64,000 nucleotides of DNA from Candidatus Omnitrophota bacterium. GTDB lineage: Bacteria; Omnitrophota; Omnitrophia; Omnitrophales; Aquincolibacteriaceae. Both the position numbers and the translations under genes were made by a program. Positions 5,792 through 46,305 of the stretch are shown here, piece by piece. The notes beneath the pieces were generated by a model. That model searched no databases. It worked only from the letters and a program-made list of their open reading frames with translations, and was not told the origin of the DNA. Numbering within the stretch: position 1 is the first letter of the stretch; each line of letters opens with the position of its first letter. Location: positions 85,301 through 149,300 of the forward strand of contig JAZDJU010000031.1 of assembly GCA_043803685.1 (NCBI GenBank), given 5' to 3'.

Positions 5792-6415
5792 GTGGATCTT
5801 GAACGGTTCCGCTCAAAGCCCCTCCTCGGGATCTTGCGCGGGATCACACCTTCGGAATTGGATCCCCTGTTCGAGACGATCGTAGTAAGCGGTCTTGAGA
5901 CCGTCGAGATCACGATGAATACCGAAGGCGCGACCGGGCTCATCAAGAGCGCGGTCAAACATTTCGGCAGCCAACTCATGATCGGCGCGGGCACCGTCCT
6001 GACTCTAAAAGACCTCCAAAGCGCGCTTCGTGCCGGCGCGACCTTCATCGTCAGTCCCGTGGTTGTCCCGCCCGTGATCGAATACTGCGTCAAACGCAAG
6101 ATCCCCGTTTTCCCGGGAGCACTTACCCCTCAGGAGATCTATCAGGCCTGGCAGGCCGGAGCGACCATGGTCAAGGTGTTCCCTGCCGGTTGTTTCGGCC
6201 CGGATTATTTCAAGGAGATCCAAGGCCCGTTCCCCAAGATCAAGCTTCTGGCGTGCGGTGGCGTGACGCCTGAGAATCTTCCGGTCTATTTCAAGAATGG
6301 GGCGAGCGCGGCCGCTATCGGAGGAAGTGTTTTCCGGAAAGAGTGGCTCGGCGCAAAGAAGTTCCACCTGATACGCGCCAAGATCCAGACATATTTAAAA
6401 GCTCTGGGTCATTAA
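5792..6415 (+). CDS. eda: KDPG/KHG aldolase
   Basis: GILRG, EITM, IGAGTV, FIVSP, KVFPA and GGVT motifs. Confidence 0.85.
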   Translation: MDLERFRSKPLLGILRGITPSELDPLFETIVVSGLETVEITMNTEGATGLIKSAVKHFGSQLMIGAGTVLTLKDLQSALRAGATFIVSPVVVPPVIEYCVKRKIPVFPGALTPQEIYQAWQAGATMVKVFPAGCFGPDYFKEIQGPFPKIKLLACGGVTPENLPVYFKNGASAAAIGGSVFRKEWLGAKKFHLIRAKIQTYLKALGH

Positions 6416-6431: not shown

Positions 6432-6502
6432 GTGTCAAAGTATCAGGGTATCAGAGTGTCAAATTCCCGCTTTGACACGTTGAAACTTTGACACTCGGAC
6501 AC
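6432..6502. repeat. octamer-repeat hairpin (family A)
   Basis: 4x GTRTCANN, loop, 4x NNTGAYAC; lies between convergent genes. Confidence 0.85.
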
Positions 6503-6541
6503 TTCTCTCAGCATTTCTTGCGGGGCTTGGGGCGGGATCTT

Positions 6542-7297
6542 TTACTTTACCGCCTTCACGAGGACCATTTTCATGGTGTCCCAAATATCATCCTCTTTCC
6601 ATTGCACGTCATGCCTGGCTTTAAAAGCTTCTGAGGCGTTTGTATAAACGGCCCTGATCTTCAACCTGGCGTCCTCCCCGATGGCGCCGTGGTCGGTCCA
6701 CTGATCGATCGATTCCCTTGTAAGATATTCGGAGGATTGAATGGCCTTAAAACCCTGCCCCCTCAGCAGACGTGAAAAGTCGTCGGGCATAAAGAAATTC
6801 TTGCGGGAAGGGTTCCGGAGTTTTTGGATCAGGAACGTCTCATCCTTATCCTCCTCGCCATAGGCCGTAAGATGCGCCAGGACCACGCGCCCGCCGGGCT
6901 TCAAAACTCTGTGTATTTGCGCAAGGACGGCGCTCAATTCCATGAATTGCAGCCCCTGGCGGCACACGCAGACATCGAACGTATCATTTTCGAAAGGCAA
7001 CTTTTCGGCAGACGTCAGGACGATCTTGTCCGCGTGGGGCCGGGCCTGCGCCACCATCTCCTGGCAAATATCCACCCCCACCACCTGCTGGACCCGGCCA
7101 TGAAATGCCTGCGCGATCTTCCCCGTTCCAATCGCAAGATCAAGAACGCAGGCTTCCGGTCCGGCATCCGCCTGTTCCCGGATCTTTTCAATGAGCGCGG
7201 TATCCTCGACCCATCGGGAGGACTGATCGTATTTCGCGGCCCTTTTGATAAAATGGTCCCGGGCCGTTTCAGAGGCCGGGACATTTTCAGGACTCAT
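6542..7297 (-). CDS. class I SAM-dependent methyltransferase
   Basis: VLDLAIGTG, GVDIC, AEKLPF and RVLKPGG motifs. Confidence 0.9.
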   Translation of the reverse strand: MSPENVPASETARDHFIKRAAKYDQSSRWVEDTALIEKIREQADAGPEACVLDLAIGTGKIAQAFHGRVQQVVGVDICQEMVAQARPHADKIVLTSAEKLPFENDTFDVCVCRQGLQFMELSAVLAQIHRVLKPGGRVVLAHLTAYGEEDKDETFLIQKLRNPSRKNFFMPDDFSRLLRGQGFKAIQSSEYLTRESIDQWTDHGAIGEDARLKIRAVYTNASEAFKARHDVQWKEDDIWDTMKMVLVKAVK

Positions 7298-8702
7298 AGC
7301 AAGACTCCCGCTCTTTGGTGATGCTCCAGACCTGATGGAAATAATCCCTCAGCGTCTCTTCACTCAGGTCCGTCAGGTTGATGATCTCATCATCGTGATC
7401 GCTCACCTTCCTCAGGGAAAGCATCTTCAGGAACGCGAGCGTGTCCGTGATCTTCCCAGTCTTGACCCCGTAGTGATAGAGACTTGTTCCCGGAAAAGGA
7501 ACGAGATATTTGACCAACGGCAGGAACCGGCTCTTTTTGATGAAGGCGACCATCTCCTTGAGGGATCGTTCCGTCTCGCCGTACAAGCCGACGATAAAAA
7601 GCCCGCGTACGGCCAACCCCCGGTCCTGGGCAACTTTGACGGCGTGATCGATCTCCCGGACCTTGATATTCTTCCGGTTCTGGTCCAGGACATGCTGGTC
7701 ACAGGATTCGATGCCGAACCATATCCCCAGGCATCCCGTCTCTTTCAGGACCGCGACCAACTTCTCCGTGACTTTTTGCACGCGGGCGAAACAATGATAC
7801 CGGACCCCATGCTTCTTCAGGATCTTGCAGATCCCGATGGCGCGTTCTTCAATGACGTTGAACGTAAGATCGTTCAGCCAGGTGTAGTCAAAACCGGTCT
7901 CTTTTTTTAAGTGCGCGACCTCCTCTTCGAACCGTTCAAGGCTTTTGAGCCTGAGACCCGGGATCGTTTTAAAGCAGAACGAGCATTCCTGAGGGCAACC
8001 TCTCATCGAAGAGATCAGGATCTGGCCGTTCTTGAGGATCTCGTCGTAATTCGGCCAGACGGTATAATCCAGATGCGGCAGGTTATCGAGGTCCTTGATC
8101 TGAGGTCTCGGCGGGTTGATCACGACCTTCCCATTGTCTTTATACGCCATCCCCTTGATCGTTTTGAACGCCACCATGCCGGACCGGAAATATTCCTGAA
8201 GAAATTCAATGAGCGTGAGTTCACCCTCTCCGAGGATCGCACAATCGGCCTCGGTATGCTTAAGCAGAACCTCGGGCAGCGACGTCACGAGCGGCCCCCC
8301 GAAGAAGATCCCTTTCTCGGGATAGCGTGCCTTGATCGCGCGCGTGATCTCCTGAAGGAAAATGAACGAATCACAATAGGTGGCGATCCCCACAATGTGC
8401 GCGTCCTTAACGCCCTCGAGGACCCATCGCTCATGATCGCTTTTCAGGCGGCAATCGATGACCTTTAAGGAATAGCCCATTTTTTTGATCACGGTGGCAA
8501 TATACGTAAAGCCCTCAAAGGGGCCGGTGACCAAAAATTCCCGGCCGGGGGTCGGGATCTGGGGAGAAGGCGGCACGATTAGAACGACAGTTCCGTGTTT
8601 CCGCACAACCGCTGCCGAACGGGAAATGCTCCTTAAGACGTCTTCCTGGGGGTCCGTGTCATGAGACAAGTAATAGTTGGATGGAGGCAAGGACGTCGTC
8701 AT
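7287..8702 (-). CDS. cobalamin-binding radical SAM enzyme
   Basis: B12-binding N-domain (GGPLVT, GEGE), RGCPQECSFC, FGIES. ATG at 8702 preferred; GTG at 8768 is the alternative. Confidence 0.9.
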   Translation of the reverse strand: MTTSLPPSNYYLSHDTDPQEDVLRSISRSAAVVRKHGTVVLIVPPSPQIPTPGREFLVTGPFEGFTYIATVIKKMGYSLKVIDCRLKSDHERWVLEGVKDAHIVGIATYCDSFIFLQEITRAIKARYPEKGIFFGGPLVTSLPEVLLKHTEADCAILGEGELTLIEFLQEYFRSGMVAFKTIKGMAYKDNGKVVINPPRPQIKDLDNLPHLDYTVWPNYDEILKNGQILISSMRGCPQECSFCFKTIPGLRLKSLERFEEEVAHLKKETGFDYTWLNDLTFNVIEERAIGICKILKKHGVRYHCFARVQKVTEKLVAVLKETGCLGIWFGIESCDQHVLDQNRKNIKVREIDHAVKVAQDRGLAVRGLFIVGLYGETERSLKEMVAFIKKSRFLPLVKYLVPFPGTSLYHYGVKTGKITDTLAFLKMLSLRKVSDHDDEIINLTDLSEETLRDYFHQVWSITKERESCYES

Positions 8703-8777
8703 AAGGCACTTTCCGGAACATGCCCCGCGCAGGGTACGCGCAAGGACAACCTGTCTGTGATCATACACACTCCGAAG

Positions 8778-10250
8778 TTAGGAATTCGGGACTCCCTGAC
8801 CGCAAGGGTGCAAAAGCGTTTTGAACTTTTTCGGCTTTAAAAAATAATAGTTAACGGGATTGGAATAATCGTACGGCCGCACTTCGATCTGGCGATTGAT
8901 CATCCGGTAGGCCCGGCGCAGATCTTTTTCAGGAAGGTCCGTAAAGTTCAGTATCTTATCATCTTCCACGGAACGCTCCCGTGCCAGGAAATACAAGTGC
9001 GCGACCTCATCCTTGATAATGCCCCGCTTGAGGGCATCGTAATAAAGCGGTGTTCCCGGAAGCGCGGACATATATTTGACCCGCGTCACTTCTTTGAATT
9101 TCCCGCAAAAAGCGACCGTTCTTTTAAGGCTTGCGGCGGTCTCCCCCGGGCCGCCAAGGATAAAGAGCCCGCCAATCTTCAGTCCCGCCTGCCGCGTCAG
9201 CGTGATCGCCTTGATGATCTGGCTTTGGGACACCTTCTTCCTGAAATAATCCAGGATCTTATCGGTGATGGATTCAAACCCGTACATAACGATGTCGCAG
9301 CCGCATTCCCGCATATGACGCAAGATCTTTAGATCGATGCCGTCGACCCGTGTAAAACAGCTCCAGCGAAAGTCGATCCCCTTGAACGCTTCCTCCATTA
9401 ATGTGTGAACGCGGGTCCTGGAGTCAATAAAGGTCAGATCGCTCCACCAGACATAACGGTAGCCGTATTGCTTGAGATGTAGCAGCTCCGCCCGGACCCT
9501 CCCGGGCGACTTGTGACGAAGAAGAGGCATGGCCCTGAAACAGAACGTGCAACGGCCGGGACACCCGCGGCTGGAGGTCATGTAGATCTCTGGGACGATG
9601 CCTGTCTTTTGAACGAGCGGCCAGACTGAAAAGTCCTGGAATGGAACGGCATCGAGATCATGCATTTGGGGCCGCCGGGGATTGATCTGCGTCTTCCCTC
9701 CGGCATCCTTCCAGGCGAGGCCGAGGATATCCTTTGAACCCGGAGCGTTCTTTCTTTTCATCAGAAGATCGAACAATTCGATCGTGGTCAATTCCCCTTC
9801 GCCGATCACGGAATAATCCGCCAACGTTTGATCCATGATCAGGCGCGGCACGGATGTCACCAGAGGACCTCCCAGGATCACGGGCCTCTTGGGATCCTCT
9901 TCCTTGGCGATCTCGATCGCCCGTTTCAAAAAAGGGAAACTGTCTTCATAGGCTGCGGCCATCACGACATCAAAGGGCTTGAACGCCCCTTGCGCCAAAG
10001 CCTCTGGATCAGAATCCTCTCTCTGATCCAGAATCGCCACATCACAACCAAGACCTTTCAGTACCGCTGCAATAATGGACGGACCCTCGAAAGGGGCTTC
10101 GTGCACGAATTCCCATCCGTGAGGAACCACGAAACACGAAGGAGGGACAAGGATCGCTACCTTGATTCGATGTCGCCGTGCGGGAGCGGTCGCGTGGGCG
10201 ATCTTCCACAACCGGCCGTAAGTGGGAGAAGCGTCAGGACGATCGTTCAT
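8778..10250 (-). CDS. cobalamin-binding radical SAM enzyme
   Basis: GGPLVT, GEGE, SRGCPGRCTFC, YGFES; the ATG at 10250 overlaps the upstream stop (ATGA). Confidence 0.9.
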   Translation of the reverse strand: MNDRPDASPTYGRLWKIAHATAPARRHRIKVAILVPPSCFVVPHGWEFVHEAPFEGPSIIAAVLKGLGCDVAILDQREDSDPEALAQGAFKPFDVVMAAAYEDSFPFLKRAIEIAKEEDPKRPVILGGPLVTSVPRLIMDQTLADYSVIGEGELTTIELFDLLMKRKNAPGSKDILGLAWKDAGGKTQINPRRPQMHDLDAVPFQDFSVWPLVQKTGIVPEIYMTSSRGCPGRCTFCFRAMPLLRHKSPGRVRAELLHLKQYGYRYVWWSDLTFIDSRTRVHTLMEEAFKGIDFRWSCFTRVDGIDLKILRHMRECGCDIVMYGFESITDKILDYFRKKVSQSQIIKAITLTRQAGLKIGGLFILGGPGETAASLKRTVAFCGKFKEVTRVKYMSALPGTPLYYDALKRGIIKDEVAHLYFLARERSVEDDKILNFTDLPEKDLRRAYRMINRQIEVRPYDYSNPVNYYFLKPKKFKTLLHPCGQGVPNS

Positions 10251-10978
10251 AAGGATGCTCTGAGGACGACCCAGTGCCAATCCTCAAAAACCTCTCCGTG
10301 GGTCTCTTCGACATAGTGCCATTTCTTATAAGCCGCCGGCGCGCCCGCCACCGCGGCAATGACCTTCCTCCGGACCTCCAGCGATAATTCCGGCGCATGG
10401 TCCATCCACTTCGTGATGGACTCGCGGACCTTCAAGGTCTTCGTCTCCTGGACGCGGAACCCGGCCTCCGTTAATTCCCCGGCAAGCGCCTCGGCCGTAT
10501 AGAACTTCAAAAGAAGCGCCTGCTTCATCCGGTGGATCTCGGCAAGCCACGCCGCATCCTCATCGGAAAATGGGACCGTGAGGCTTACCACAAAGATCCC
10601 TCCGGGGGCCAGGACCCTGGCGATCTCGGCCAGAACTTCTTTCACATTCAAGAATTGGAACGCTTGGCGGCAGACGACCAATCCGAACGCTGCGCTTTCG
10701 AACGGCAGTTTTTCAGCCCTGCCTTCCGAGACGGAAAAATAGCCGGACGCAACCCGGACCATGTCGGCACAGATATCAAGTCCCCGGACGTCCCACCCCA
10801 CCGCCTTCATGGCGCGCCCGATCTGTCCCGTCCCGCAACACAGGTCCAACGCTTTGCCCGACGGTTTTCCGGCCAGGTCCACATGGGCTCGGATCAGCGC
10901 TGGATTCGAGATCCAGTTTGCGGAGATATCAAAATCCGAAGAACGGACCGAAAATTGATCTTTTAATTTTTTATCCAT
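10247..10978 (-). CDS. class I SAM-dependent methyltransferase
   Basis: ALDLCCGTG, GLDIC, AEKLPF; paralogous to 6542..7297 (shared VCRQ and RESI motifs). Confidence 0.9.
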   Translation of the reverse strand: MDKKLKDQFSVRSSDFDISANWISNPALIRAHVDLAGKPSGKALDLCCGTGQIGRAMKAVGWDVRGLDICADMVRVASGYFSVSEGRAEKLPFESAAFGLVVCRQAFQFLNVKEVLAEIARVLAPGGIFVVSLTVPFSDEDAAWLAEIHRMKQALLLKFYTAEALAGELTEAGFRVQETKTLKVRESITKWMDHAPELSLEVRRKVIAAVAGAPAAYKKWHYVEETHGEVFEDWHWVVLRASL

Positions 10979-10997
10979 ATTGAAATGCCTTTTGTGT

Positions 10998-11876
10998 TTA
11001 TCCTCTCGCCAGAACGCCCGTCATGCAAGCCAGCCCGCCTCCGGCATTCACGTACTGGGTGGTCGGCACTTCCGCCGCGACCTTGATGCCAAGTCGTTCG
11101 TAGGTCTTTTTTGTCCGTTCGCAACCTGCCGTCATCAGAATGACCTCGGGTTTCAGAACGACGAAATTCATGGCATGCTTGTTCCTTATTCCGGCATCGG
11201 CCGGAATCAAGGTCGTCTTTATCCCGCGATCCTTCAACAACTTGAGCGTTCCGGAACCCAAGGAACCTTTTTTCACGAAAGCCCTGCCTTTCGCCACGAA
11301 TTGGAGAGCGCCCAGAAGATGCAGCCCCCTGCACGGCGCCGGAACGGGAACGCATTCGACGTGATCTCGCTTTAACTCCTTCGCGACCTGGCAGAATCCT
11401 TCCTCATTCGTCCTTTTCCCAACGCCGACCAGGACGAGCCCCGGATGCACCCATAAAGCATCGGCGCCTTCAAAGGTCGCGGGACTCCGGAGGGTTTTCC
11501 GGATACGGATCCCCGCTGCGGCGATAGCTTGCTGGACATAACGGACCTCGCCGCGCCTCACTTGGGAGAACATGCTCGCCATGATGGCTCCACGCGGCGT
11601 CATAAAAAAAGCATCCCGGGTGAACATGAGATTGAAAAGATGACGGTTGTCGGAATTTTCCGCTTGAGCCGGATCCATGACGAACACTTTTATTTTCAAT
11701 TTCTTGTACATGGCAACGATGCTTTCGAATTCCGTTCTCATGACCAAATAACGGATCTTTTTCAAATAAAGGACTTTTCGGGGATCATGGGCATGCTCGA
11801 TCCAGGGATGCGGCGGGCATAACAATACCGCACGCAACGGCTTCCACTCAGCATCCACGGCGTAGTGCGTCATCAC
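10998..11876 (-). CDS. amidinotransferase / arginine deiminase / DDAH superfamily enzyme
   Basis: FTRD, FEGAD, LHL and C-terminal GGGLACMT (catalytic Cys). Confidence 0.85.
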   Translation of the reverse strand: MMTHYAVDAEWKPLRAVLLCPPHPWIEHAHDPRKVLYLKKIRYLVMRTEFESIVAMYKKLKIKVFVMDPAQAENSDNRHLFNLMFTRDAFFMTPRGAIMASMFSQVRRGEVRYVQQAIAAAGIRIRKTLRSPATFEGADALWVHPGLVLVGVGKRTNEEGFCQVAKELKRDHVECVPVPAPCRGLHLLGALQFVAKGRAFVKKGSLGSGTLKLLKDRGIKTTLIPADAGIRNKHAMNFVVLKPEVILMTAGCERTKKTYERLGIKVAAEVPTTQYVNAGGGLACMTGVLARG

Positions 11877-13282
11877 AACCAGTTTTCCATATCCTGGGGA
11901 TCATACCCAAGTTGGGCGCTCATCTCGTTCATGGGAGGAGTTTTCACAACAGATGTCAAGGCTTTACCCCGTTTTTTCCATCTAAAAAAACTGGGCGCTT
12001 CCGTCGCGTGCACCACACGCAGCAGATCCAGCTTCAACCCCTTCAGAAACTCCCGCTCCACACCCAGGAAATCCACGATCTTCTCCATCTCGCCCATACG
12101 AGTTCTCAGATCCTCAAGAATGTTCTCGCACTTCACCACGCAATAGGCTTTTTTCTTCGTATTCAAATAGGCTCTGATGGCTGTATGAGCAGAATGCCAT
12201 TGAAAGGCGCAGACCTCCTCCAGGGGGCGTTGCGAATAGTCCTGCCAGCCAGGAGGCAGTTCGAAATTCCACCACCACTTCCCCCACTCATACTTATCGG
12301 AATATCCCTGAATCCCGAGCTTTTCAAAGGCGTGCCCGTTCTTATTTTGGTCCAGGAAGATCTTCAAATTATGGGAAAAGAAACCTCGATGCATCCACCC
12401 ATCGCACAGACCGTTGACCGAAGCGGCCGGATTTCTCGTGAGATGGATGATCTTGATCGCGGCCTGGGGCATAAGCGACTCGATCAACGGCAGCCGGTAA
12501 CAATCCAGCGAAGTCTTTAAAAGCAACGTTTTGTCCGACAGATCGGCCCTACATGCCTTCCTCCTCGGCGATAGTAATATGAAAGGAGGCTCTTCAACCG
12601 CCAGGCAGGCATCCGGCGGCCCGGACGGGACCGGAAGACCCGGAAACTTCCCTGCGATCCTTTCCGCGGGGATATCGTAATAATATGGATCGATCTCGCT
12701 ATAGTCGCGCTTGAGGAGCCAAAGAAGTTCAAGATAAAAGGTCTCTTTGCAAAATTCCGGGTGAGACTTTCTCACGGTATCGAAGGCCTGTCGGATCCGA
12801 TCGCTGAGGATATCCAGAGAAAAACGGATCCCGGGCCATTGCAAAGGAAAACGCAATGTCAGATCATCCCAATACACCTCTGCGATTTTTTGATCCGTAA
12901 AGATATCCCCATGTAGCTCCGTGAAAGCAAAATCACTCAAGAGATCGCGGGATAACCCCGGAAGATAGGGGTCCGCCCCCATAAGCCCTTCCGGGACTTC
13001 GTCGGAACCGAACGTGTCATCCAACAATCTGTTCAGCTTGTAGAAGGGAACGTTCTCTCCGCTCAAGGAATAAAAAGACGGGATGTCTTTGAGGATCGAA
13101 AACAACAGGCTGGAGCCCGACCGGGAGGAGGAAGCAATGATGACAACGTTCTTCACATCCCGGAGCGAAGCGGTGAAACCGATCCTTCCGGGATCCTTGC
13201 GCTGGATTCCCTCCAGGACTGTCTCCCGGAAACGGATGATGTCTTGGATGCGCTCCCTGGCTTCGTTGACCCATGTCTTCAT
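11873..13282 (-). CDS. PAPS-dependent sulfotransferase with large insertion
   Basis: 5'-PSB loop SSSRSGSSLL; 3'-PB motif HLTRNPAASVNG. Confidence 0.8.
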   Translation of the reverse strand: MKTWVNEARERIQDIIRFRETVLEGIQRKDPGRIGFTASLRDVKNVVIIASSSRSGSSLLFSILKDIPSFYSLSGENVPFYKLNRLLDDTFGSDEVPEGLMGADPYLPGLSRDLLSDFAFTELHGDIFTDQKIAEVYWDDLTLRFPLQWPGIRFSLDILSDRIRQAFDTVRKSHPEFCKETFYLELLWLLKRDYSEIDPYYYDIPAERIAGKFPGLPVPSGPPDACLAVEEPPFILLSPRRKACRADLSDKTLLLKTSLDCYRLPLIESLMPQAAIKIIHLTRNPAASVNGLCDGWMHRGFFSHNLKIFLDQNKNGHAFEKLGIQGYSDKYEWGKWWWNFELPPGWQDYSQRPLEEVCAFQWHSAHTAIRAYLNTKKKAYCVVKCENILEDLRTRMGEMEKIVDFLGVEREFLKGLKLDLLRVVHATEAPSFFRWKKRGKALTSVVKTPPMNEMSAQLGYDPQDMENWL

Positions 13283-14295
13283 TTTAAAGCCCGTAGTTTG
13301 AGGGACTTCAGGAATACAAATTTTCTGAACCTTAGAAAATTATTTCTATCGGTAAAAAGATGCCGGACCTGCACGATCAGCATTAAAAACATCTCCTCGA
13401 TCAAATACACCCCCTTGAACCGCGTCTTCTTCGCACGCGCCTCTTCTGAAGAGCAAGGAGGGGTTGTCAGCGCATAAGAGAAACGGCTCAACTCCAGGCC
13501 CGCGATCGCCTCGAACAGTTCTATTTCGTCTTTTCTCAGTTCTTTTTTATATTTTTCGAAGTTATCTTTCAGGATCGGGCTGGACGTATTTTGCCACGCC
13601 GCGCTCAGACGGCCGCTTTTCCGGGCTTCTTCGGTATCAAAAAACCGGAGCATCCCTTCCTCAAAGGGCTCGCCCAGGAACGAACATATCGCCGCCACCG
13701 TTTCACGGGACTGGCGCAAAAGGTCCTCATACCGGACGAGAAGCATTGCGTCCTTTCGAAGCGTGTTGAGCCACCGAATGCCGAGCTGCTGCTCCTTCGC
13801 CCACAGCTGCGCCGTAAAATAAACGCTGTAGTGGCTGAAGATGCTTTTTTTCGCGGACGCTGCGACATCCCGGCCGTCACGCACCATATAAATAAATTTG
13901 GCTGAAGGATAATTACGCCGGATCAACTCGATGTGATGGATCATGAAGGTGCTCTTACAGGCCCATCGCTCCTTCCCAGCATGTTCAAGATACTGATCAT
14001 AGACAGCAAAATAAATGTGGATTAGATCTCTTTCGCGAGCATTAAGGAATATCTTCTCCTCATCAATCTCAAAGCCCCAGGGATAGGGATGAAGCCGGAC
14101 GCTCGTCGCCACATCCTTGATAAGCCGCTTGAAGTTAACATCCTTGGACAGATCGGAATAAAGCGGTTCCAACCTTGAGAAATTCTTCATGATATGCGGC
14201 GGATGAGGGACTGCGATGTGGGGATGTGAATTGAGGATGAGTCTGAGAAGATTCGTACCGGAGCGTTCTGTGCCTACAATGAAGATGGGATCCAT
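13279..14295 (-). CDS. PAPS-dependent sulfotransferase
   Basis: FIVGTERSGTNLL, MVRDGRDVAAS and VRYEDL motifs. Confidence 0.9.
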   Translation of the reverse strand: MDPIFIVGTERSGTNLLRLILNSHPHIAVPHPPHIMKNFSRLEPLYSDLSKDVNFKRLIKDVATSVRLHPYPWGFEIDEEKIFLNARERDLIHIYFAVYDQYLEHAGKERWACKSTFMIHHIELIRRNYPSAKFIYMVRDGRDVAASAKKSIFSHYSVYFTAQLWAKEQQLGIRWLNTLRKDAMLLVRYEDLLRQSRETVAAICSFLGEPFEEGMLRFFDTEEARKSGRLSAAWQNTSSPILKDNFEKYKKELRKDEIELFEAIAGLELSRFSYALTTPPCSSEEARAKKTRFKGVYLIEEMFLMLIVQVRHLFTDRNNFLRFRKFVFLKSLKLRALK

Positions 14296-14543
14296 TTTTC
14301 AAGAACGCCGGTGCGGCAAAACAACCTTCTCCAGTTAATGGTACCTCTGTTCAAGAAAAACGGTCACGTGCCGGAATCACTCCCTTTGAACCTCTTTCTC
14401 TCAAACGGCGGATCGTCAGACCTTTAGGAACGTAGTGCAAGTACGGTGTGATTATACCTCTGTCGGCATGAGCAAACCAGCCAAGTTTCTGAATAATCCA
14501 GAAATTTCGCACATCCCGTCCGACAAAACACGCCCATCGTCTA

Positions 14544-16553
14544 TCAGCGTTTTTTGCGGGAAGGACGCGATGTTTTCTTGGGAGCTGTTGTGCCCGCTCC
14601 TTCGATCCGGCGGATCTCGTCACGGTAGCGGGCGGCCTTGTCGAACTCAAGAGCCCGGGCACAGGCTTCCATCCGGGTCTTGAGAAAAGCGAGGTAGTTC
14701 TTGGCCTCATATTCCTTGCCGGATTCGTGGACCACATCGTGGACGAATTCTTCGGCTTTTTTCCATTGTTCGATCCCGTCCTTGATCTCCTTCTTGATCG
14801 ACACCGGCGTGATCTTGTGCTCCACGTTGTAATCCGCCTGAACCTTGCGACGGCGCGCGGTCTCTTCGATCGCGCGTTTCATGGAATCCGTGACCTTGTC
14901 CCCGTACATAATCACCTTGCCGTTGATGTGGCGCGCGGCACGACCCGCGATCTGAATGAGTGAAACGTCACTCCGGAGAAAGCCTTCCTTATCCGCGTCC
15001 AGCACGACCACGAGCGACACTTCCGGCAGGTCCAGCCCCTCGCGCAGAAGGTTCACGCCGATCACGCAATCGTATTTCTTGAGACGGAAATCGCGGAGGA
15101 TCTCGACCCTCTCGAACGCGTCGAACTCGGAGTGGATATAATTCACCTTGATCCCGAGCTCCTTTAAGTACCGGCTCAGGTCCTCCGCCATTTTCTTGGT
15201 GAGCGTCGTCACGATCGTCCGCTCCGATTTCGCCGCCCTCGCTCTCACCTCAGCGATCAGGTCGTCGATCTGTCCCTCGGATTTTCGCACCTCGATCTCG
15301 GGATCCATGAGTCCCGTCGGACGGATCACTTGCTCCGCGACTTCTTTCACGCGTCCCAGCTCGTAAGGCCCCGGCGTCGCGGAAACGTAAAGACACTTGC
15401 TCAATTTGGCCTCAAATTCCGGCCACTTGAGCGGCCGGTTGTCCATCGCCGAGGGCAGGCGAAACCCGTGGTCGACCAGGACTTTCTTGCGCGAGGCGTC
15501 CCCGTTGAACATCCCGCGGACCTGCGGCACGCTCTGATGCGATTCGTCGATAATGACGAGAAAATCCTTCGGAAAATAATCCATAAGCGTGTAAGGCGTA
15601 GAACCCGCGGTACGGCCGGAAAGATGTCTCGAATAATTTTCGACGCCGGAGCAATAGCCGACTTCCTTGAGCATCTCCAGATCATATTGCGTGCGCGACT
15701 CGAGACGTTTGGCCTCCAGGTCCCGGCCTTCGGCGGTGAGTCTCTTGACGTGTTCTTTCATTTCCGCTTCGATCGACACGATCGCAGCCTCGAGTCGTTC
15801 CCCCGGCGTCACGAAATGCTTGGCGGGATAGATCGCGAGCTTTTCGATCTCCCGGATCGCCGTCAACTTGATAGGTTCCAGGAGCGCGATCCGTTCGATC
15901 ACTTCTGTGCCAAAGTCGATCCGGTACGGGTTCTGTCCGTACGACGGAAACAGGTCGATCCTGCCGCCGCGCACGCGGAACGTCCCGCGACGGAGCTCCG
16001 TATCCACCCTTTCGTATTGAAGACTGATCAGACTCGACAGGAATTTGTCGCGGTCCGCGGCCTCCCCCTTCACGATCGTGACGAGAAGTCCCTCCCAGTC
16101 CTCCGGCGCGCCGAGGCCGTAGATACACGAGACGCTTGAGACGATGATGCAGTCCTTGCGCGAAAGAATGGAACTGGTCGCGGAAAGGCGCAGGCGGTCG
16201 AGGTCTTCATTGATCGACGCGTCCTTCTCGATATAGGTGTCCGTGTGCGGGATGTACGCCTCCGGCTGGTAATAATCATAATAGGAAACAAAATACTCAA
16301 CGGCGTTCCCGGGAAAGAATTCCTTGAGCTCGGAGTAAAGCTGCGCGGCGAGGGTCTTGTTGTGAGAAATGAGGAGCGTGGGAAGTCCGAGCCGGGCGAT
16401 CACGTGCGCCATGGTGAACGTCTTGCCGGAACCGATGACGCCTTTGAGGACCTGCTCCCGGGCTCCCGCCTCGAAGCCCTGAACAAGTTTTTCGATCGCC
16501 TGCGGCTGATCTCCCTTAGGACTCATCGATGAAACCAGCCTAAAATCTGACAT
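14544..16553 (-). CDS. uvrB: excinuclease ABC subunit B
   Basis: GDQPQAI, HNKTLAAQLY, YFVSYYDYYQPEAY, DESH, C-terminal UVR domain. Confidence 0.97.
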   Translation of the reverse strand: MSDFRLVSSMSPKGDQPQAIEKLVQGFEAGAREQVLKGVIGSGKTFTMAHVIARLGLPTLLISHNKTLAAQLYSELKEFFPGNAVEYFVSYYDYYQPEAYIPHTDTYIEKDASINEDLDRLRLSATSSILSRKDCIIVSSVSCIYGLGAPEDWEGLLVTIVKGEAADRDKFLSSLISLQYERVDTELRRGTFRVRGGRIDLFPSYGQNPYRIDFGTEVIERIALLEPIKLTAIREIEKLAIYPAKHFVTPGERLEAAIVSIEAEMKEHVKRLTAEGRDLEAKRLESRTQYDLEMLKEVGYCSGVENYSRHLSGRTAGSTPYTLMDYFPKDFLVIIDESHQSVPQVRGMFNGDASRKKVLVDHGFRLPSAMDNRPLKWPEFEAKLSKCLYVSATPGPYELGRVKEVAEQVIRPTGLMDPEIEVRKSEGQIDDLIAEVRARAAKSERTIVTTLTKKMAEDLSRYLKELGIKVNYIHSEFDAFERVEILRDFRLKKYDCVIGVNLLREGLDLPEVSLVVVLDADKEGFLRSDVSLIQIAGRAARHINGKVIMYGDKVTDSMKRAIEETARRRKVQADYNVEHKITPVSIKKEIKDGIEQWKKAEEFVHDVVHESGKEYEAKNYLAFLKTRMEACARALEFDKAARYRDEIRRIEGAGTTAPKKTSRPSRKKR

Positions 16554-32254: not shown

Positions 32255-35200
32255 CTAGAAAAGCGAAAATCCGTAAAGCTTCATATCGAGAGAGGACGAA
32301 CCGGTCCCTTCCGTAACGAAAACGATCTCATCCACCAGCGGATATCCCGAAAGAATGAGGTCCGTATTGACCGTCTTGACAGCTCCTCCGGTATTTTGCA
32401 GGTTCAGATATTGCGTTTTTACAATGATCAAATTACCAAAACTATCTCTCGCTTTATATTCGATCCTCGCATTGGGCACCGGCGTCAAAGAAGAATAACT
32501 GATCTGGAGCTGGCGAACATTGATGGAAAGATCATTAGTGATCGCCGCGACGCCCATGCCTTGAAAATTGCTGCTCGTAAGATGAAGGGCCCCTGAATCC
32601 CAACTCGCAGCGGCATTGCCTCCGTTCAGGGCAAACGTGGCGATCGGCCCTTTCAAGAGATCCGTCCCAAGGACATGATTGACGGAGAAATTCACGACCG
32701 TTCGATTTCCCGCCAGATCAGATTCTTCGATCGTAAGCGTATTCGCGCCTGTCACGAGATCCGTAAAAGTTTTCTGTTTTAGCGAACCGTCTAGAGTGTA
32801 ATTCACCGTAATAGAAGACGAGGCGATCATCGCCGGAGTCCCGGGATCCAGTACCACGACGGGAGCAACGGTATCCACCGTCACCTGATGGGTCACCGTG
32901 GTTGAATTCCCGGCCAGATCCTTCTCCGTAATGGATAACGTATTCGATCCTTCCGGAAGATCTGTAAAAAGTTTCGTCTTCGAAACTCCATCCACCGTGT
33001 AACTCACTGTCAGCGTCTTCGCCTTGATCAGGCCCGGGATCCCAGCATCCAGCACCACCACGGGGGGCGTGAAATCATTCTTGGGGATCTGTCTCATTTC
33101 ACCCCCAGTACTGATCACCCCCATCATATCGCCGTAGGCGTACCACAGTTCGACCTCATCCGATCCATTGAGACTCATCCCGCTCAGGATGTTCCCTTCA
33201 TAAAGACGAACCACTTCCCTTCCCGGGCGGAGATAATTCATTTCCGTGAACCATTCATTGATTGGACCGCTACCCGTCATTTTATAATACGCGTGAAACC
33301 CAATAGCGAGATTTCCGCCACGCGTGTAAATGAGATGGTATACGGGGGCTACCGGCATGGAAAGCAACTGCAGATCCGCCACATTCACCTGCGGCGCGTA
33401 CTGCAGCAATAATGCCTCCAGATCCCCTCCCGTGTACTCCACGCCCACTTCCACTCCCGCAGGCGGCACAAAGCGGGCGGCGGGCACGAGCGTCATGCTG
33501 GTGATCTTGTCGTTCGGATATCCCTGCGCGTCCGGGAACAGAACCACGGCATCGGTAATGTACCAGTAAAGATAGCTTTCGGGGATCGTGATCACGTACT
33601 CGCCGGGACCGGACTCCGTCGCCGGAAGGTCAAATTGAACACTGTAGGCCGGATCATTGCTCCCCGCGTGCTTCAGCTCAAGCTTCACGCCCGTGACCGG
33701 CGTTGAAGACTGATAGGTGATACGCAATTCGCGGTCGGAGGCCCGGACAGCTTCAGGAAGGTGCCAGGCGGTCCCTTTGAACCCGTTCCATTCGAAATTA
33801 CCGCTCGTCCCGCTCGTGAGCGAGACCGGTGTCTGCGGATCCCAGATCGACTCGAGTTTCGATGTCAGCCCTTTATTTTCGAGATACCGGGTCATGGAAG
33901 CTCCTCCGGTCCCGGCCATCCCGAGCGTAAACGAAACCACGTTGTTGAATACCTGCTCTTTGACCACTTTGCCCGAACTCATGTTGATACCTTCCCAGAG
34001 ACCGTGGCTTGTAATGAGCTCCGGATGCTCATTGATCAATCGCTGCAATAAGGCTTCGACCCCCTCAGGACGGAACATGTACGCCGCCCCCAGGTTGTAT
34101 GTCGAAGGCGTGGTCTCCGAGACCCCGTTCATGGCGATCTCGTTAATGCCAAGCGAAAAGTTATATTGAATGCGGTCCGTATCGATGCTGTAGAACGTGA
34201 GGTCAAGCGGCCCGCTACCTTCGGAAGTCACGAAAACCACTTCGCTCAGATCGCCCAATACGCCGCTCTCGGGCAACTGAAGCGAAAGCGTGCGCACTTC
34301 CCCTCCTGTATTTTCCAGCGTCAGGTCCTGCACATACACGGTCGTCAGCACACCATCGATCTTCTGTTTGAATTCCAGCCTCGCGTTCGGCACCGCCGTC
34401 TGAGAAGAATACCGGATCTGCAACGCCGACCCTTCGAGCACGTACTTGCTGTTGTCGGTAAAAGCAACGCCGATTCCATTCGTGCTTCCGGCCGTCAGGT
34501 GAAAACTGCCGTCAGCCCCATAGCTCGGATTCACTACGTCCCCCTGCCAGCTGAATGCACTGACAGAGCCGCTCAAAAGATCATAAGAACCCACGTCATA
34601 GCTCGCCGACAAAAGCCCCGGCTGGTTGTTACGCTGAGCGTAATCGAGTTGCACGTCCGTGTAGGTCTCGAGCATCGCACGCAGATCCGGATCATCCGCT
34701 TCCGGCAACAAGAGCGCCGGCCAGTACATCTGGAAAGCACCGCTGAAAGGCTCAACAACGGTTCGGGTACTGCCGTCCTGCATCGCGTAGTCGCTGACCG
34801 AGAAATAAAGCTTATTGTAAACACTCGCCGGAAACGCGTCGCCGTACTGCAAGATGAGGAAGAGGAGCGGACCCATACTTTCCGCTCCAAAAAGATCGAC
34901 CGTCCCTTCCAGGTGACCATCCGAGATCACCATCGTCCGGGCGAACGTCTGGTTCGCGGCGTTATACATGGCCACGTAGCCTGGCCGCTGGTTCTCAATG
35001 AAAGCGTCGATCTTGTCCAGAATGCCGCCGGAAGCGTGGACCGTCGCGTTGCCCGAAAGCGACGCGTCCAGGAGCGCGCCGTAAGCGACCGCAAGTCCCG
35101 CCGTCATGTTCGTGTTGTCCTCGAAACTGACCTGGCGGCCGTAAAGATCGTCCATCCTTTCCCAGTCACCGTTGTAATAGCCGAGCCAGGGCAATAATCC

Positions 35201-38200
35201 CTGGTAGCCCAGCCTCTGTTGATCTTCGAGCAGATGGGTCATCATCACATCAAGCCGGCGGATCGCTTCCGCTTTTGAGATGGTAGAGGTCACAAGATCT
35301 CCCGCGGCGATCGTGGCGAGCAGATTCGCGTAAAACCCGAAGTTGGAGGGCTGAGTGATGCGGCGCTGGAGCCACCCCTCGAGCGGATATTCATGAGTCG
35401 ATTCGACAAGGCCAAAATCGGTCTCTAAATAAAGCATGTTGATCTGCGTCAAAAGGTCGGCAGCGGTCGTGATCTCCCTGGGAATGGCCCGGTAAACAAC
35501 AGCCCCGCGATCCTGCGCCGGATCTTGCCAAGCAACCTCCCCGTAATGAGCGGCCACAAAAGTTCCCGCGGTCTGCCAAACGCCTGAGCCATCGTCAAAC
35601 TGAACCTCGTAACGGACTCCGCGCATCGCCTGATCGATCTTAAGCGACCACTGGTTCGCGGCGCTCGGGACCTGCGTGATCACGGGTTCGACGAACCGGA
35701 TCGCGGGCAGTTCCGGCAGGATCTCAAGCGTATTAAGATCAAAGCGAACGGTACGGATCGAACCGTCATCTTCACGGACTGTGTAAGTCGCGATATTGTT
35801 CTGATACGTAACCGAAGTGGCAGCTCCATCGAACGTGATGTTCTGGTTTACGAGGAATGTTTTATTGAACGTTAGCGAATCAAGACCGAGCGCGAGGACT
35901 GTCTGGCCTCCCGGCGCAACAACCGCATCGACCAGTGTAAAAGTCCCGCCCGCCGCACCCGGCGTTTCATTCCCGAGACTTACGGTCCGAACGGCAGACG
36001 AATAATCGTTCCCTCCATACAAGCTATAGATATGGGCGTAGTACTGGCCCGAGGTCTGGTCATATTCCGGCTGAACCGCGAGGGACAGCACGTCGTTGCG
36101 ATAAAACCCGGTTCCGGGAGTCACGAGCGTTAAATAGAAACTCGAAATAAATTCCGGGTTGAACGTGCTGATGCGGATCCCTGTGGAGGTGCGGATCACC
36201 GTGCCGCTGGGATAGGTCCAGTCCGTTTTGAGCATGACGTAATTGCTGTAATAGAGGATCTGCGTCAGATCGCCTGCGACAGTCTGGGCCGTCCAGGGCT
36301 CACCGATCCGTTCCACGCGCGCCGTCCCTCCGCCTTCGTAGATCACTTTGCTACCATCCGGCGTCACGTCAAAGGTATCGGGAACGTCTCCGGCGCCGGA
36401 ATAAAGAAGCGTGATCCCGCCGCTCGGAATATATTTCAGTTCGAGCCGGGAAATATCGCCGTCCTGTATCACGCGGAAAGCGAAATTCGCGTTAGAGGTC
36501 GCCGGGACCCAAGGCGCCGCGGGAGGAATATCCACGAGGATCGAATCGGTAAAAACCTCTGAGATCAGCCCCGCCTTGTCCATGAGCTGGCAATGCACTT
36601 GCCGCGCACCGTTCCCCTCAGGAAGCGTGAACGACTGCGTTTCGCTGAACGCCGTCCACTCCGACCAGATTGTTCCTTGATCGGTGGAAAAACGGACCTG
36701 ATCGACGCCTGAACCGGCATCGGAACCAGTCAAACTGAAGGTCACTTCCGAAGACGTTGATGTCGAAGCGCCGTCATTGATCGAAAGCGTACCGACGGGC
36801 TTCACCGTATCCAAAAGCACGGTCACAGACGCGGACTCCGACCATTTTCCGGACCTATCCTGGAATTTCACATACATTTTTTTGAGACCATCGCTTGCCG
36901 AAAAGATGACCGGCATGGAAGTGGCGTATGCCTGAGCCGCAGACCAATTGAGCCCATCCCCAGAAAAACTCATCTGGCTCACCCCGGAACCGGCATCCGT
37001 TGCTGACAAATCCATCGTGGCAGCACTTTGCGTAATATACTGGGCACCCCCGTTGATCTTGATCGTTCCGGTGGGCGGCAGCGTGTCCAGAATGATGGAC
37101 TTCGAATAAACCGCACTGGCGTTCCCGGCCTTGTCGTAATACTTCACAAAAACTTGCTTAGCCCCGTCCCCGTCCGTCAGAGTGAACGTCTTGGATGTTG
37201 CGTAAGCAACGGGCGTTGCCCAGTTCGTTCCATCTATCGAAAAACTCATCTTGCTTATGCCGCTCCGGCTGTCCGTCCCGGAGAGATTGAGCGTCACCGT
37301 CTGCGAAGAGGCATACACGGCACCCGAATTGATATTGAGCGAACCCGTCGGCGCTACCGTGTCCAAAGTCACGGTCACGGATGTCACCGCGGACCACCTG
37401 CCGACCTTGTCCTGGAATTTCACATACACTTTCTTCGCTCCATCGCCGGTCGCAAACGTCCACGCTTTTTGCGCCGCATAACTCTCCGCCGTAGTCCACG
37501 TCGTTCCGTTCGACGAAAAACTCATTTTACTTAGCCCCGAACCCGCGTCGGTTGCGGCAAGGTCCAGCGTCACGGCGGTCTGATTGATGTAGGTAGTCCC
37601 GCCGTTCACCTTGACCGTCCCCGCAGGAGGAAGCGTGTCCAGAATGATGGACTTCGAATAAACGGCGCTCACGTTCCCGGCTTTGTCGTAGTACTTCACA
37701 TAAACGGTCTTGTTGCCATCGCCGGAAGGAAGCGTGAATGTTTTTGAAGTCGCGTAGGCCACGGCCGAACTCCAGGTCGTGCCATTCGTCGAAAAACTCA
37801 TCTTAGAGATCCCGCTTCCGGAATCCGCGCCGGAGAGGTTCAAGGTCACGGCCGTGGAAGTGGCGTAAAGAGCCCCTGAGTTAATATTGACCGCGCCTGT
37901 CGGAGGCGTTGTATCCAGAAGGATCGACCTGGAATACACAGCGCTGGCATTTCCGGCCTTGTCGTAATACTTCACATAAACTTTTTTAGTCCCATCCCCG
38001 TCCGCCAGAGTGAACGACTTGGAAGTCGCGTAAGCGACGGGTGTGGTCCAGTTCGTCCCATCCGTCGAAAAACTCATCGTGTTTATGCCACTCCGGCTGT
38101 CCGTCCCGGTAAGATTCAACGTCACCGTCTGCACCGCGGTATAAAGCGCTCCCGAATTGATATTGATCGTTCCGGTCGGCTTGACCGTATCCAAAGTGAC

Positions 38201-43781: not shown

Positions 43782-44414
43782 TCAGCGTATAAAGTTTGTG
43801 AAGATACGTTCTTCTCTCTCCGGGAAAGGGATCCCGGCCTTGGTTCCCGCCTCTTTACATTTCAAGAACCACGCCATATTTCTCCCCAAGGTGCGCATCG
43901 TCTGCAAACCCTCCAGATCTTTTCGGACATCGTCGGGAGTGTGCCCGTGGACCATGTTCCAATATTGAGATGAGATGACCGGCATCTGTGAGATGGTGAA
44001 ATATTTGTTGAGTTGGTCGAATGTCGCCGTCGTCCCGGCTCTTCGGGCAGAGACAACGGCAGCGGCTGGTTTTAAATAAAAGGACTGCCTTCCGGAGAGG
44101 AGGTCTGCAAAGAACACGCGATCCATAAAGGAGGTGATGGCGCCGCCCGCAGACGCATAATGCACGGGAGAACCGAACACAAACCCATCCGCGTTTTTAG
44201 CGATATCCAGAAAATCATTCACCCGGTCGGAAAAAACACAACGCTTCAGCTCCGCGCATTTCCGGCAAGCGATGCATCCGGACAAAGGCGTTCTGCCGAT
44301 TTGAAATATTTCCGTTTCAACCCCGCCGGCATTCAATGTTTTCGCCACTTCCTCCAATGCCGTATAAGTACATCCCTTTTCATTCGGACTTCCATTCACT
44401 AACAATACTTTCAT
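43782..44414 (-). CDS. iron-sulfur flavoprotein / NADPH-dependent FMN reductase family
   Basis: NGSP, CIACRKC.....C, GSPVHY, RRAG. Confidence 0.88.
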   Translation of the reverse strand: MKVLLVNGSPNEKGCTYTALEEVAKTLNAGGVETEIFQIGRTPLSGCIACRKCAELKRCVFSDRVNDFLDIAKNADGFVFGSPVHYASAGGAITSFMDRVFFADLLSGRQSFYLKPAAAVVSARRAGTTATFDQLNKYFTISQMPVISSQYWNMVHGHTPDDVRKDLEGLQTMRTLGRNMAWFLKCKEAGTKAGIPFPEREERIFTNFIR

Positions 44415-44463
44415 GTAGGCTCCTTTGCGCGCGCTTGCCGGTGTTGCCTATGAAGTGGATACC

Positions 44464-45063: not shown

Positions 45064-45068
45064 AGTTC

Positions 45069-45178
45069 TCCCGTGCGAAGACGAGACCTCAAAGTCTCGC
45101 GAGCCTGCCAGAAACATCGGTTTCAGGCCTTTTCGGTGCCTGCCCGCCAGCGCTGTGTGGCGGGACTGTCACCTGTCT
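45069..45178. repeat. 110-bp direct repeat, copy 2
   Basis: See 43565..43674. Confidence 0.9.
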
Positions 45179-45204
45179 CTGTATTGTCACCTGCCTTGGC
45201 AGAA

Positions 45205-45936: not shown

Positions 45937-46305
45937 TCAAAGAATTACCCCAATGTATTTTCAAATAAGAAGGAATTTCTTCTCAAAAAAAGGGCCCTAT
46001 TTCAAACAGCAACCAGGACGCCATCCCGAGGAAGAGGTTAACTTACCCCCGTACAAACAACATCAAGCCCAAAATAGAAATAGCATCTAGGGATAGTGTT
46101 GGGCAAAGTATACGCCTCTTGTTAATTTCCGACTATATTTCTTCGTGGAGGCGAAAAGCGGGGTGAGACACGCTAAGGAGGCCGAGAGCCAGGGTTTTTC
46201 ATCGAGGCCGACGCTCGCGAGTGCGGTCATGCCTCGGTGGGGCATGACAAACGTTGGCGAGACACACTTTTCGCCGAAGCGTTTTGCTTTGGGAAAACGT
46301 CTGGA

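Follow-up and report, generated by a model that had tools for sequence, protein, structure and literature searches.

A compact seven-gene island in a 64,000-nucleotide (nt) stretch of DNA from an uncultured Candidatus Omnitrophota bacterium (assembly GCA_043803685.1, contig JAZDJU010000031.1, positions 85,301 to 149,300; hereafter the window, with positions counted from its first letter) encodes proteins that are, as judged from alignments, homologous to the products of five to six of the nine genes that Streptomyces requires for the sulfamoyl group of nucleocidin and ascamycin. On balance, and with modest confidence, we read the island as a reduced form of this sulfamoyl-forming gene set, whose product would likely be a sulfamoylated small molecule rather than a sulfated and guanidinylated one. 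The island lies between uvrB and eda and comprises two sulfotransferases (ST1, ST2) predicted to depend on or resemble enzymes using 3'-phosphoadenosine-5'-phosphosulfate (PAPS), a guanidino-modifying enzyme (GME) related to dimethylarginine dimethylaminohydrolase (DDAH), two S-adenosylmethionine (SAM) methyltransferases (MT1, MT2) and two radical SAM enzymes (RS1, RS2). Lengths are in amino acids (aa).

uvrB: 14544-16553, flank of the island on the ST1 side
Right junction: 14296-14543, minus strand, 248-nt spacer between uvrB and ST1, from the coordinates of the open reading frames (ORFs)
ST1: 13279-14295, minus strand, 338 aa, predicted PAPS-dependent sulfotransferase, NucK/AcmK-like
ST2: 11873-13282, minus strand, 469 aa, long sulfotransferase-fold protein, NucO/AcmO-like
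GME: 10998-11876, minus strand, 292 aa, cysteine hydrolase or transferase of the DDAH/arginine-deiminase fold, NucN/AcmN-like
MT1: 10247-10978, minus strand, 243 aa, class I SAM methyltransferase, nearest to the methyltransferase domain at the C-terminus of the gyrase-like NucP/AcmP-type fusion
RS1: 8778-10280, minus strand, 500 aa, B12-binding radical SAM enzyme, NucJ/AcmJ-like
RS2: 7287-8768, minus strand, 493 aa, paralogue of RS1, second NucJ-like B12 radical SAM enzyme
MT2: 6542-7297, minus strand, 251 aa, class I SAM methyltransferase, NucL/AcmL-like
Left junction: 6504-6541, strand not assigned, short copy of the uvrB 3' end, from a repeat match and its reverse-complement reading
eda: 5792-6415, KDPG (2-keto-3-deoxy-6-phosphogluconate) aldolase, flank of the island on the MT2 side

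All seven frames are intact and closely spaced on the minus strand within 6542-14295, the limits set by an earlier reading made from the letters alone (the sequence-only reading), and the coordinates confirmed its gene order (two sulfotransferases, amidinotransferase, methyltransferase, two radical SAM enzymes, methyltransferase) and its description of overlapping or near-abutting genes: ST1/ST2 and ST2/GME overlap by 4 nt each, RS2/MT2 by 11 nt and MT1/RS1 by 34 nt (a value that depends on the uncertain TTG start codon of RS1), with gaps of 19 nt between GME and MT1 and 9 nt between RS1 and RS2. The motifs that it had named were found in the translations (GGGLACMTG in GME, CPGRCTFC in RS1, CPQECSFC in RS2), and the SRSGSS loop and RNP motif of ST2 are invariant among 13 relatives. 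Its proposal of methyltransferase/radical SAM pairs duplicated in mirror order is borne out by the identities between RS1 and RS2 (39%, 8e-97) and between MT1 and MT2 (33%, 1e-39). An ORF and Pfam scan between uvrB and eda found, as it had said, no polyketide synthase (PKS), nonribosomal peptide synthetase (NRPS), glycosyltransferase or transporter; the island lacks a scaffold-building enzyme, and the earlier view of the seven genes as a coherent PAPS-dependent operon stands as a prediction. The rest of the 64-kb window consists of housekeeping genes.

Deletion of 26 genes in Streptomyces calvus found nucI, nucG, nucJ and nucK, as well as nucL, nucN, nucO, nucQ plus nucP, together with the PAPS genes nucA and nucW, to be each required for the 5'-O-sulfamyl group (PMC10946740). 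The same paper describes NucK as a strong sulfotransferase match (3.7e-39 and 5.2e-13) and NucO as a low-confidence Sulfotransfer_3 match, with 4GBM and 4GOX as its nearest folds. ST1 has near-identical Pfam values to those of NucK (Sulfotransfer_3 2.4e-37, Sulfotransfer_1 5.5e-16), and ST2 mirrors NucO, with a weak Sulfotransfer_3 match as its sole Pfam hit (9e-5, under the cut-off, aa 251-289) and the same two structures, the CurM sulfotransferase 4gbm and the Ols sulfotransferase 4gox, ranked first by Foldseek for its AlphaFold2 model (predicted local distance difference test, pLDDT, 76), a result reached independently. The ascamycin gene table of Streptomyces sp. JCM9888 lists acmG (sulfatase, 480 aa), acmH (B12/radical SAM, 453 aa), acmI ("acylsulfatase"), acmJ (Fe-S oxidoreductase, 557 aa), acmK (sulfotransferase, 356 aa), acmL (UbiE-like methyltransferase, 250 aa), acmN (amidinotransferase, 319 aa), acmO (hypothetical, 444 aa), acmP ("DNA topoisomerase II", 658 aa) and acmQ (rubrerythrin, 155 aa), in addition to PAPS genes (PMC4257720). 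Its K, O, N, L, J/H and P entries cover the families of the seven island genes, with lengths close to theirs.

The island thus shares with the nucleocidin set (S. calvus, S. virens) a strong sulfotransferase, a long weak one, an enzyme of the DDAH/amidinotransferase superfamily, a SAM methyltransferase and a B12/Fe-S radical SAM enzyme, and both rely on PAPS genes encoded elsewhere; it differs in lacking nucleoside, glucosyl and fluorination genes and in having two radical SAM paralogues and two stand-alone methyltransferases. Compared with the ascamycin cluster (acmG-acmQ plus acmA, acmB and acmW), it holds just the equivalents of K, L, N, O, J/H and the methyltransferase part of P, without the alanyl-tRNA-synthetase-like, halogenase and transporter genes; the PAPS genes lie inside the ascamycin cluster, as they do in some of the related loci described below.

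Direct alignments were made with two actinomycete cassettes (loci L110 and L111), in which a sulfatase-like match on the opposite strand is followed by genes for a B12 radical SAM enzyme, a sulfotransferase, a methyltransferase, a rubrerythrin, a gyrase-B-like ATPase/methyltransferase (GyrB-MT) fusion and a long sulfotransferase. The sulfatase-like match was obtained by tblastn (26-27% identity) and is absent from the Pfam scan of the overlying ORF, and a DDAH-like gene was detected in L111 only, not in L110. The window proteins align over their full length with these cassette proteins at just 33-48% identity (MT1 with the C-terminal domain of the fusion); the host is an uncultured non-actinomycete. 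Specifically, ST1 is 33-35% identical to the shorter sulfotransferase over 334-336 aa (~1e-60) and ST2 33-34% to the long one (down to 1.7e-71), with 35% (1e-74) to a 442-aa sulfotransferase of Streptomyces griseorubiginosus. GME is 34% identical to its L111 homologue (1e-39). RS1 (35-37% over 432-450 aa, 1e-90) and RS2 (33-34%, ~1e-80) both match the radical SAM protein encoded beside the ST1-type gene, a protein with B12-binding and Radical_SAM domains. MT2 is closest to the stand-alone methyltransferase (46-48%, 1e-70), whereas MT1 is nearer to the C-terminal part of the GyrB-MT gene (33-34%) than to the stand-alone enzyme (28-32%). Members of the NucK, NucO, NucN, NucL and NucJ types are therefore represented by ST1, ST2, GME, MT2 and RS1/RS2, respectively. 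In L111 the GyrB-MT fusion and the long sulfotransferase lie within one 1093-aa open frame (L111:7814-11095).

The label "amidinotransferase" given to GME by the sequence-only reading holds at the superfamily level; the specific name does not, since DDAH and arginine deiminase are nearest to it in both sequence and structure. Pfam assigns GME to ADI (1.1e-17) and DDAH (1.3e-9), and the best NCBIfam match is dimethylargininase (1.1e-18). A sequence search of the Protein Data Bank (PDB) returned 14 matches, all DDAH or arginine dihydrolases (best Pseudomonas aeruginosa DDAH 3rhy, 2.4e-9) with no amidinotransferase among them. The AlphaFold2 model (pLDDT 94.9) superposes on DDAH with a TMt of 0.86-0.88 and a root-mean-square deviation of 2.6-3.1 Å (3rhy: 0.88, 2.6 Å), and less well on the amidinotransferases AGAT (1jdw, 0.64) and SxtG (6u1r, 0.66); at 292 aa, GME is also shorter than true amidinotransferases such as AGAT, StrB1, CyrA and SxtG (~340-420 aa). 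Residues D88, R107, E136, R155, H186 and C284, invariant among 23 relatives, align in HMMER with D66, R85, E114, R132, H162 and C249 of DDAH, which we take to be its catalytic triad (Cys-His-Glu) and two carboxylate-binding arginines. Conservation of the carboxylate-binding residues would fit a substrate with a free amino-acid end. GME shares the DDAH fold at about 20% identity to 3rhy and 1h70 and has R87 in place of DDAH E65. Because its NCBIfam scores (67.9 and 41.9 bits) fall far under the curated cut-offs (340 and 450), sequence and model together indicate a DDAH-like enzyme that is not a DDAH orthologue. It is 31% identical (5e-46) to a Streptomyces "DDAH family / amidinotransferase" protein whose gene is next to that of an ST2 homologue (consecutive accessions). 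One 90%-identity cluster mixes 442-aa sulfotransferases with 323-325-aa DDAH-family proteins, encoded by adjacent genes of the same Streptomyces genomes; the mixture is probably an artefact, arising where some assembly has overlapping or fused gene calls.

Nor do these comparisons support the analogy drawn earlier with saxitoxin (SxtG/SxtN) and cylindrospermopsin (CyrA/CyrJ). Both pathways likewise pair a guanidino-superfamily enzyme with a PAPS sulfotransferase, and SxtG is among the fold matches of GME; the likeness stops at superfamily labels, the island having no PKS or other sxt/cyr genes and GME lying nearer to DDAH than to SxtG or AGAT.

RS1 (B12-binding 6.2e-15, Radical_SAM 6.9e-21) and RS2 (1.5e-10 and 3e-16) each have a B12-binding domain followed by a CxxxCxxC core, which places them in class B of the cobalamin radical SAM enzymes as a predicted class; the NCBIfam scan reached the cut-off of no curated family. 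The closest PDB entries were AprD4 (3.3e-14) and the glutamine C-methyltransferase QCMT/MgmA (9ccb, 1.1e-13) for RS1 and 9ccb (3.9e-19) for RS2. The B12 plus radical SAM layout is the same in 9ccb, AprD4, CysS and TokK, at E-values of just 1e-13 to 1e-19. MT1 and MT2 both match Methyltransf_11 (1.4e-18 and 1.1e-21). The MT-RS-RS-MT block moves as a unit, being downstream of ST1-ST2-GME in Omnitrophota and upstream of it in Geobacterales.

The genes had been called orphan, with co-occurrence in other genomes as the suggested check. A search with ST2 as query showed that the set recurs widely: a relative is encoded at 244 loci of species-level contigs (one genome per species), 443 relatives were found among the candidates scored from a set of 5.8 billion proteins, and 269 clusters at E <= 1e-30 in a library of 1.84 billion representatives. 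Counted on the best 80 of the 244 loci, the partners were GME in 64, ST1 in 54, a methyltransferase homologue in 50 and a radical SAM homologue in 41; all four classes accompanied ST2 in 31 loci and none in 8. Of the 70 loci with a long enough flank, 56 had GME as the gene directly downstream of ST2. The 80 loci come from Omnitrophota, Planctomycetes, Elusimicrobia, Bacteroidales, Geobacter and other Desulfuromonadales, Desulfobulbia, Myxococcota (including Sorangium), cyanobacteria, Gemmatimonadota, Actinomycetota and several proteobacterial groups. Like the homology, this gene partnership and its link to PAPS genes are direct observations: APS (adenosine-5'-phosphosulfate) kinase genes recur as neighbours (19/80), and the locus L066 has both CysD and CysN/C genes. 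Other recurrent neighbours were sulfatase-family genes (28/80), the GyrB-MT fusion (17/80), a rubrerythrin-like protein (15/80) and a metallo-beta-lactamase protein (10/80).

Two architectures can be told apart. Type B, the form of the actinomycete cassettes, has the GyrB-MT fusion (17/80 loci, 14 of them with rubrerythrin), in which HATPase_c and DNA_gyraseB domains, the N-terminal half of gyrase B, are joined to Methyltransf_11 (e.g. L041:6823-8832, L045:7983-9968). Type A, the form of the window, has radical SAM genes and no GyrB domain (26/80 loci, with at least two radical SAM genes in 12, sulfatase genes in 14 and APS kinase in 12). All seven window families occur together in ten loci (L004, L013, L017, L021, L022, L023, L025, L029, L030 and L036) spanning at least four phyla, one of which (L025) is from the isolate Geobacter sp. 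OR-1. The ST2-GME pair stands alone at L108 and L109, and several cyanobacterial and myxobacterial loci are without radical SAM and methyltransferase genes. A phylum-wide sample of Actinomycetota had an ST2 relative in 5 of 401 genomes, with no full cassette among those examined, and a sample from the order of an Actinocrinis metagenome-assembled genome (MAG; L067) had one in 7 of 401, two of these seven being the sources of the cassettes L110 and L111.

Several accessory arrangements were seen alongside the core. Most Omnitrophota cassettes have, between GME and MT1, a gene missing from the window that encodes a 306-aa cytidylyltransferase-like/APS kinase fusion (L070:12314-13234; equivalents in L002-L004, L006, L008, L009, L012, L014 and L030), possibly a PAPS synthase in compact form. 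After the cassette in Geobacterales come a metallo-beta-lactamase gene, three sulfatase-family genes in tandem and a multihaem cytochrome (L029:12346-19957; equivalents in L013, L015, L023, L025 and L036); in L029, from a Desulfuromonadaceae MAG, a twin-arginine signal was found on the first of the sulfatase-family proteins, in which no C/S-x-P-x-R motif was seen at about its customary position. That the metallo-beta-lactamase protein of the related loci corresponds to NucI is a guess.

Consistently with a PAPS-dependent system, and answering the check for cysDNC genes that had been proposed, the window's own genome (91% complete) encodes on contig C69 a cysD (C69:8941-9618) and a 638-aa cysN/C-type frame with an APS kinase domain (C69:11146-11592); no PF01747 ATP sulfurylase was found in it. 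We considered and rejected PAPS supply as a part of the island: APS kinase is present in 32 of 41 lineage genomes, so this supply is not island-specific and did not arrive with it. The contig that contains the window carries a cobalamin riboswitch beyond the window's limits, and four sulfatase-family genes are located elsewhere in the genome, away from the island.

By analogy with Streptomyces we infer that the same chemistry operates in this organism, and the step order, the role of arginine and the acceptor set out here are part of that proposal. Activated sulfate would be supplied as PAPS by the genome-encoded CysD and CysN/C, and the NucK-like ST1 would transfer it to a hydroxyl of a small acceptor, which in the known systems is the 5'-OH of adenosine. 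ST2, GME and the two methyltransferase/B12 radical SAM pairs would then convert the sulfate ester into a sulfamate (O-SO2-NH2). CurM and Ols sulfotransferases use sulfate as a leaving group, and a role in this conversion would fit ST2 for that reason, with ST2 helping to activate the sulfur centre; these "activating" enzymes are its top structural and profile matches, although ST2 is only 12-13% identical to them, has large insertions (469 aa against domains of ~280 aa) and stands outside any polyketide synthase. DDAH cleaves the C-N bond of N-substituted arginines. A guanidino nitrogen of arginine might bond to the sulfur, after which GME would cut the C-N bond in the manner of DDAH and release the sulfamoyl amine and citrulline. 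Adenosine is our simplest guess for the acceptor, because no acceptor-building gene travels with the cassette, and most simply the product would be a 5'-O-sulfamoyl nucleoside of the adenosine-sulfamate type, a mimic of adenosine monophosphate (AMP) that poisons aminoacyl-tRNA synthetases. In nucleocidin the 5'-oxygen is reported to be kept (PMC10616807), and nucleoside sulfamates are described as potent AMP mimics hijacking aminoacyl-tRNA synthetases (PMC7613620). The mass shifts of +80, +42 and +14 Da predicted earlier for the product are consequently replaced: given the match to the nucleocidin/ascamycin sulfamylation sub-cluster, the expected mark would be a sulfamoyl group, +79 Da (calculated), on a nucleoside.

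The earlier proposal of an undescribed pathway fares differently for genes and enzymes. The families are those of a genetically defined sulfamylation sub-cluster, so the gene set as such is already known; the match is one of genetics, and the enzymology is unsolved. The sequence-only reading had named a match to a characterised pathway as an outcome that would refute it, and such a match exists in part. According to a 2021 review, how the S-N bond is formed is not known (PMC9113183), and a 2026 review of ascamycin biosynthesis treats, in the part available, the alanylation step only (PMC12945691). In the literature on nucleocidin, ascamycin and sulfamates, with subscription journals outside our coverage, we found no paper solving the S-N step and none that surveys the cassette beyond actinomycetes; the closest was a remark, based on antiSMASH-type similarity, on nucleocidin-like clusters in Pseudoalteromonas (PMC9966250). 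A search by enzyme names gave no description of this cluster. As far as this literature goes, neither the reduced type A architecture nor how broadly it occurs has been described. How nature forms a sulfamate group is an open question that a slimmer cassette could help to answer: the gene set extends far beyond actinomycetes in two architectures, its conserved core can be told from accessory parts, Geobacter sp. OR-1 carries all seven families in a cultured organism, and the arginine route offers a testable idea for the nitrogen step.

A number of observations weigh against reading the island as a reduced sulfamoyl-forming set. Likeness to the Nuc and Acm proteins is drawn by way of the actinomycete cassettes L110 and L111 and published descriptions. 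No known chemistry explains what the methyltransferases and the radical SAM enzymes would do in the formation of an S-N bond. The GyrB-like domain of NucP/AcmP, essential in S. calvus, has no counterpart in the island, which holds the methyltransferase part only (MT1); neither the sulfatase NucG nor the arylsulfatase NucI, each essential in S. calvus, is encoded there; the pseudo-rubrerythrin NucQ is likewise absent from it, the genome giving only weak generic matches (4e-8 and 2.7e-5), and the metallo-beta-lactamase protein of the related loci has no match in the genome (91% complete). No nucleoside-handling, resistance or export gene was found in the island, which would be odd for the producer of a general poison of aminoacyl-tRNA synthetases. 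Finally, an earlier study, as reported in PMC10946740, had assigned nucK, nucN and nucO to fluorination, an assignment contradicted by later complemented knock-outs. Given the four missing functions that are essential in S. calvus and the want of a resistance or export gene, the reduced cassette may carry out related but different chemistry.

A rival explanation close to the sequence-only reading is a pathway whose product would keep one or more sulfate esters and gain C- and N/O-methyls, with GME trimming or transferring the guanidino group of a free arginine-type amino acid or another small molecule and no sulfamate being made. Besides the four of nine Streptomyces functions missing from the island, such a pathway would suit radical SAM proteins nearest to C-methyltransferases (9ccb, CysS, TokK), a GME that keeps the two arginines holding the carboxylate in DDAH, and the existence of ST2-GME pairs without radical SAM or methyltransferase genes. 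We nevertheless regard it as rather unlikely, as the sulfamylation set contains the best-understood counterpart of each gene, the partnership persists from one architecture to another, and the literature searched by enzyme names contained no sulfated, methylated guanidino metabolite with such genes. Still less probable, in our estimation, is a role in non-antibiotic physiology, in which the genes would make a free inorganic or amino-acid-bound S-N species (N-sulfo-arginine, sulfamate) and the nucleoside sulfamates of Streptomyces would be a specialised offshoot. The spread over many phyla, the housekeeping neighbours, the want of export and resistance genes, the sulfatase-family genes (including the one with a twin-arginine signal in L029) and a GME that looks fitted to a free arginine derivative would all agree with it, but the island is found in none of 40 relatives of the lineage and so looks better as an accessory trait than as core physiology. 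We know of no free S-N metabolite or physiological role of this kind.

Two further explanations seem to us very improbable. A role in modifying some protein or ribosomal peptide (by tyrosine sulfation, arginine deimination and C-methylation) is suggested by the PDB matches of ST1, which include tyrosylprotein sulfotransferases (TPST1/2, ~1e-8) below the top-ranked CurM sulfotransferase (4.8e-11), by the methylation of a glutamine of methyl-coenzyme M reductase by the best solved relative of RS1 and RS2, and by a sub-threshold NCBIfam match to ApyD, an enzyme of ribosomally synthesised and post-translationally modified peptides. Nevertheless, no precursor-like ORF, protease or transporter is present in the island or conserved across the 80 loci, with no plausible precursor or conserved small ORF in the 248-nt spacer or the rest of the island; GME resembles enzymes of free amino acids over peptidyl-arginine deiminases, and the Streptomyces homologues serve a nucleoside pathway. 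Equally hard to credit is a decaying, non-functional remnant of a larger cassette: the absence of the four Streptomyces functions and the inserted nature of the island would be compatible with decay, yet the seven frames are open, their catalytic motifs are intact and the same seven families are kept together in the ten loci. A bolder extension of the sulfamoyl reading, which we think more doubtful than not, is that the seven-gene cassette with two radical SAM and two methyltransferase genes is a self-sufficient machine for the S-N (sulfamate) bond, spread in uncultured anaerobes and many phyla. Were it true, antimetabolites of the sulfamoyl nucleoside type, at present known from a few Streptomyces, would serve many microbes as a weapon, with the small-celled, possibly host-dependent Omnitrophota among the producers, and a core of NucK-, NucO-, NucN-, NucJ- and NucL-like proteins would be the minimal enzymology, with arginine as nitrogen donor and a DDAH-type release.

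The seven-gene cluster is an inserted island, since eda and uvrB adjoin without it in relatives. Among 41 genomes of the lineage, the ST2 search detected it in just one, that of the window, and comparison of the eda-flanking loci in 11 relatives showed uvrB directly after eda in six (L085-L090), all of the window's genus, with no uvrB inside the 1.5-kb eda flank examined in the other five. An imperfect direct repeat flanks the island (6504-6524 and 14540-14560, matching at 18 of 21 nt, a score reached by 1 of 500 shuffles). Its left copy reads in reverse complement KRSRPKPRKKC-stop, while UvrB of the window ends KKTSRPSRKKR-stop; the uvrB of a congener ends RKKC-stop, like the left copy. This copy of the uvrB 3' end with its congener-like reading suggests that the island arrived by recombination at the end of uvrB. 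Base composition gave no sign of foreign origin (GC content 0.52-0.55 in the island, 0.55-0.57 in the flanks). A promoter and terminator scan yielded nothing exceeding chance, and no sigma-70-like site was found on the minus strand of the 248-nt spacer.

Around the insertion site, GTGTCA(A/G)AG / CTTTGACAC words, inverted in orientation, form an array in the intergenic region on the eda side (6440-6500), and a similar array occurs in the eda-uvrB spacer of an island-free congener (L086, ~2160-2260). In a distant member of the Omnitrophota (L012, UvrB 58% identical) the cassette too sits just downstream of uvrB, and synteny on the valS side is the same (ValRS, two ORFs, UvrB, a 255-aa ORF, then ST1-ST2-GME). 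Insertion may favour this site, or the location may be an old one that the window's congeners have lost. Loci L033 and L041, from unrelated proteobacteria, have the cassette beside argJ and secA, an arrangement that may be due to chance or may point to a link with arginine/ornithine supply. Elsewhere in the window, a minus-strand ORF of 2461 aa (32255-39640) with bacterial Ig-like domains (Big_13, Big_3_2) probably encodes a giant surface protein, and a low-GC patch at ~43800-46000 (0.447 against ~0.55 elsewhere) contains FMN (flavin mononucleotide)-reductase and flavodoxin-like genes and an unassigned 243-aa ORF.

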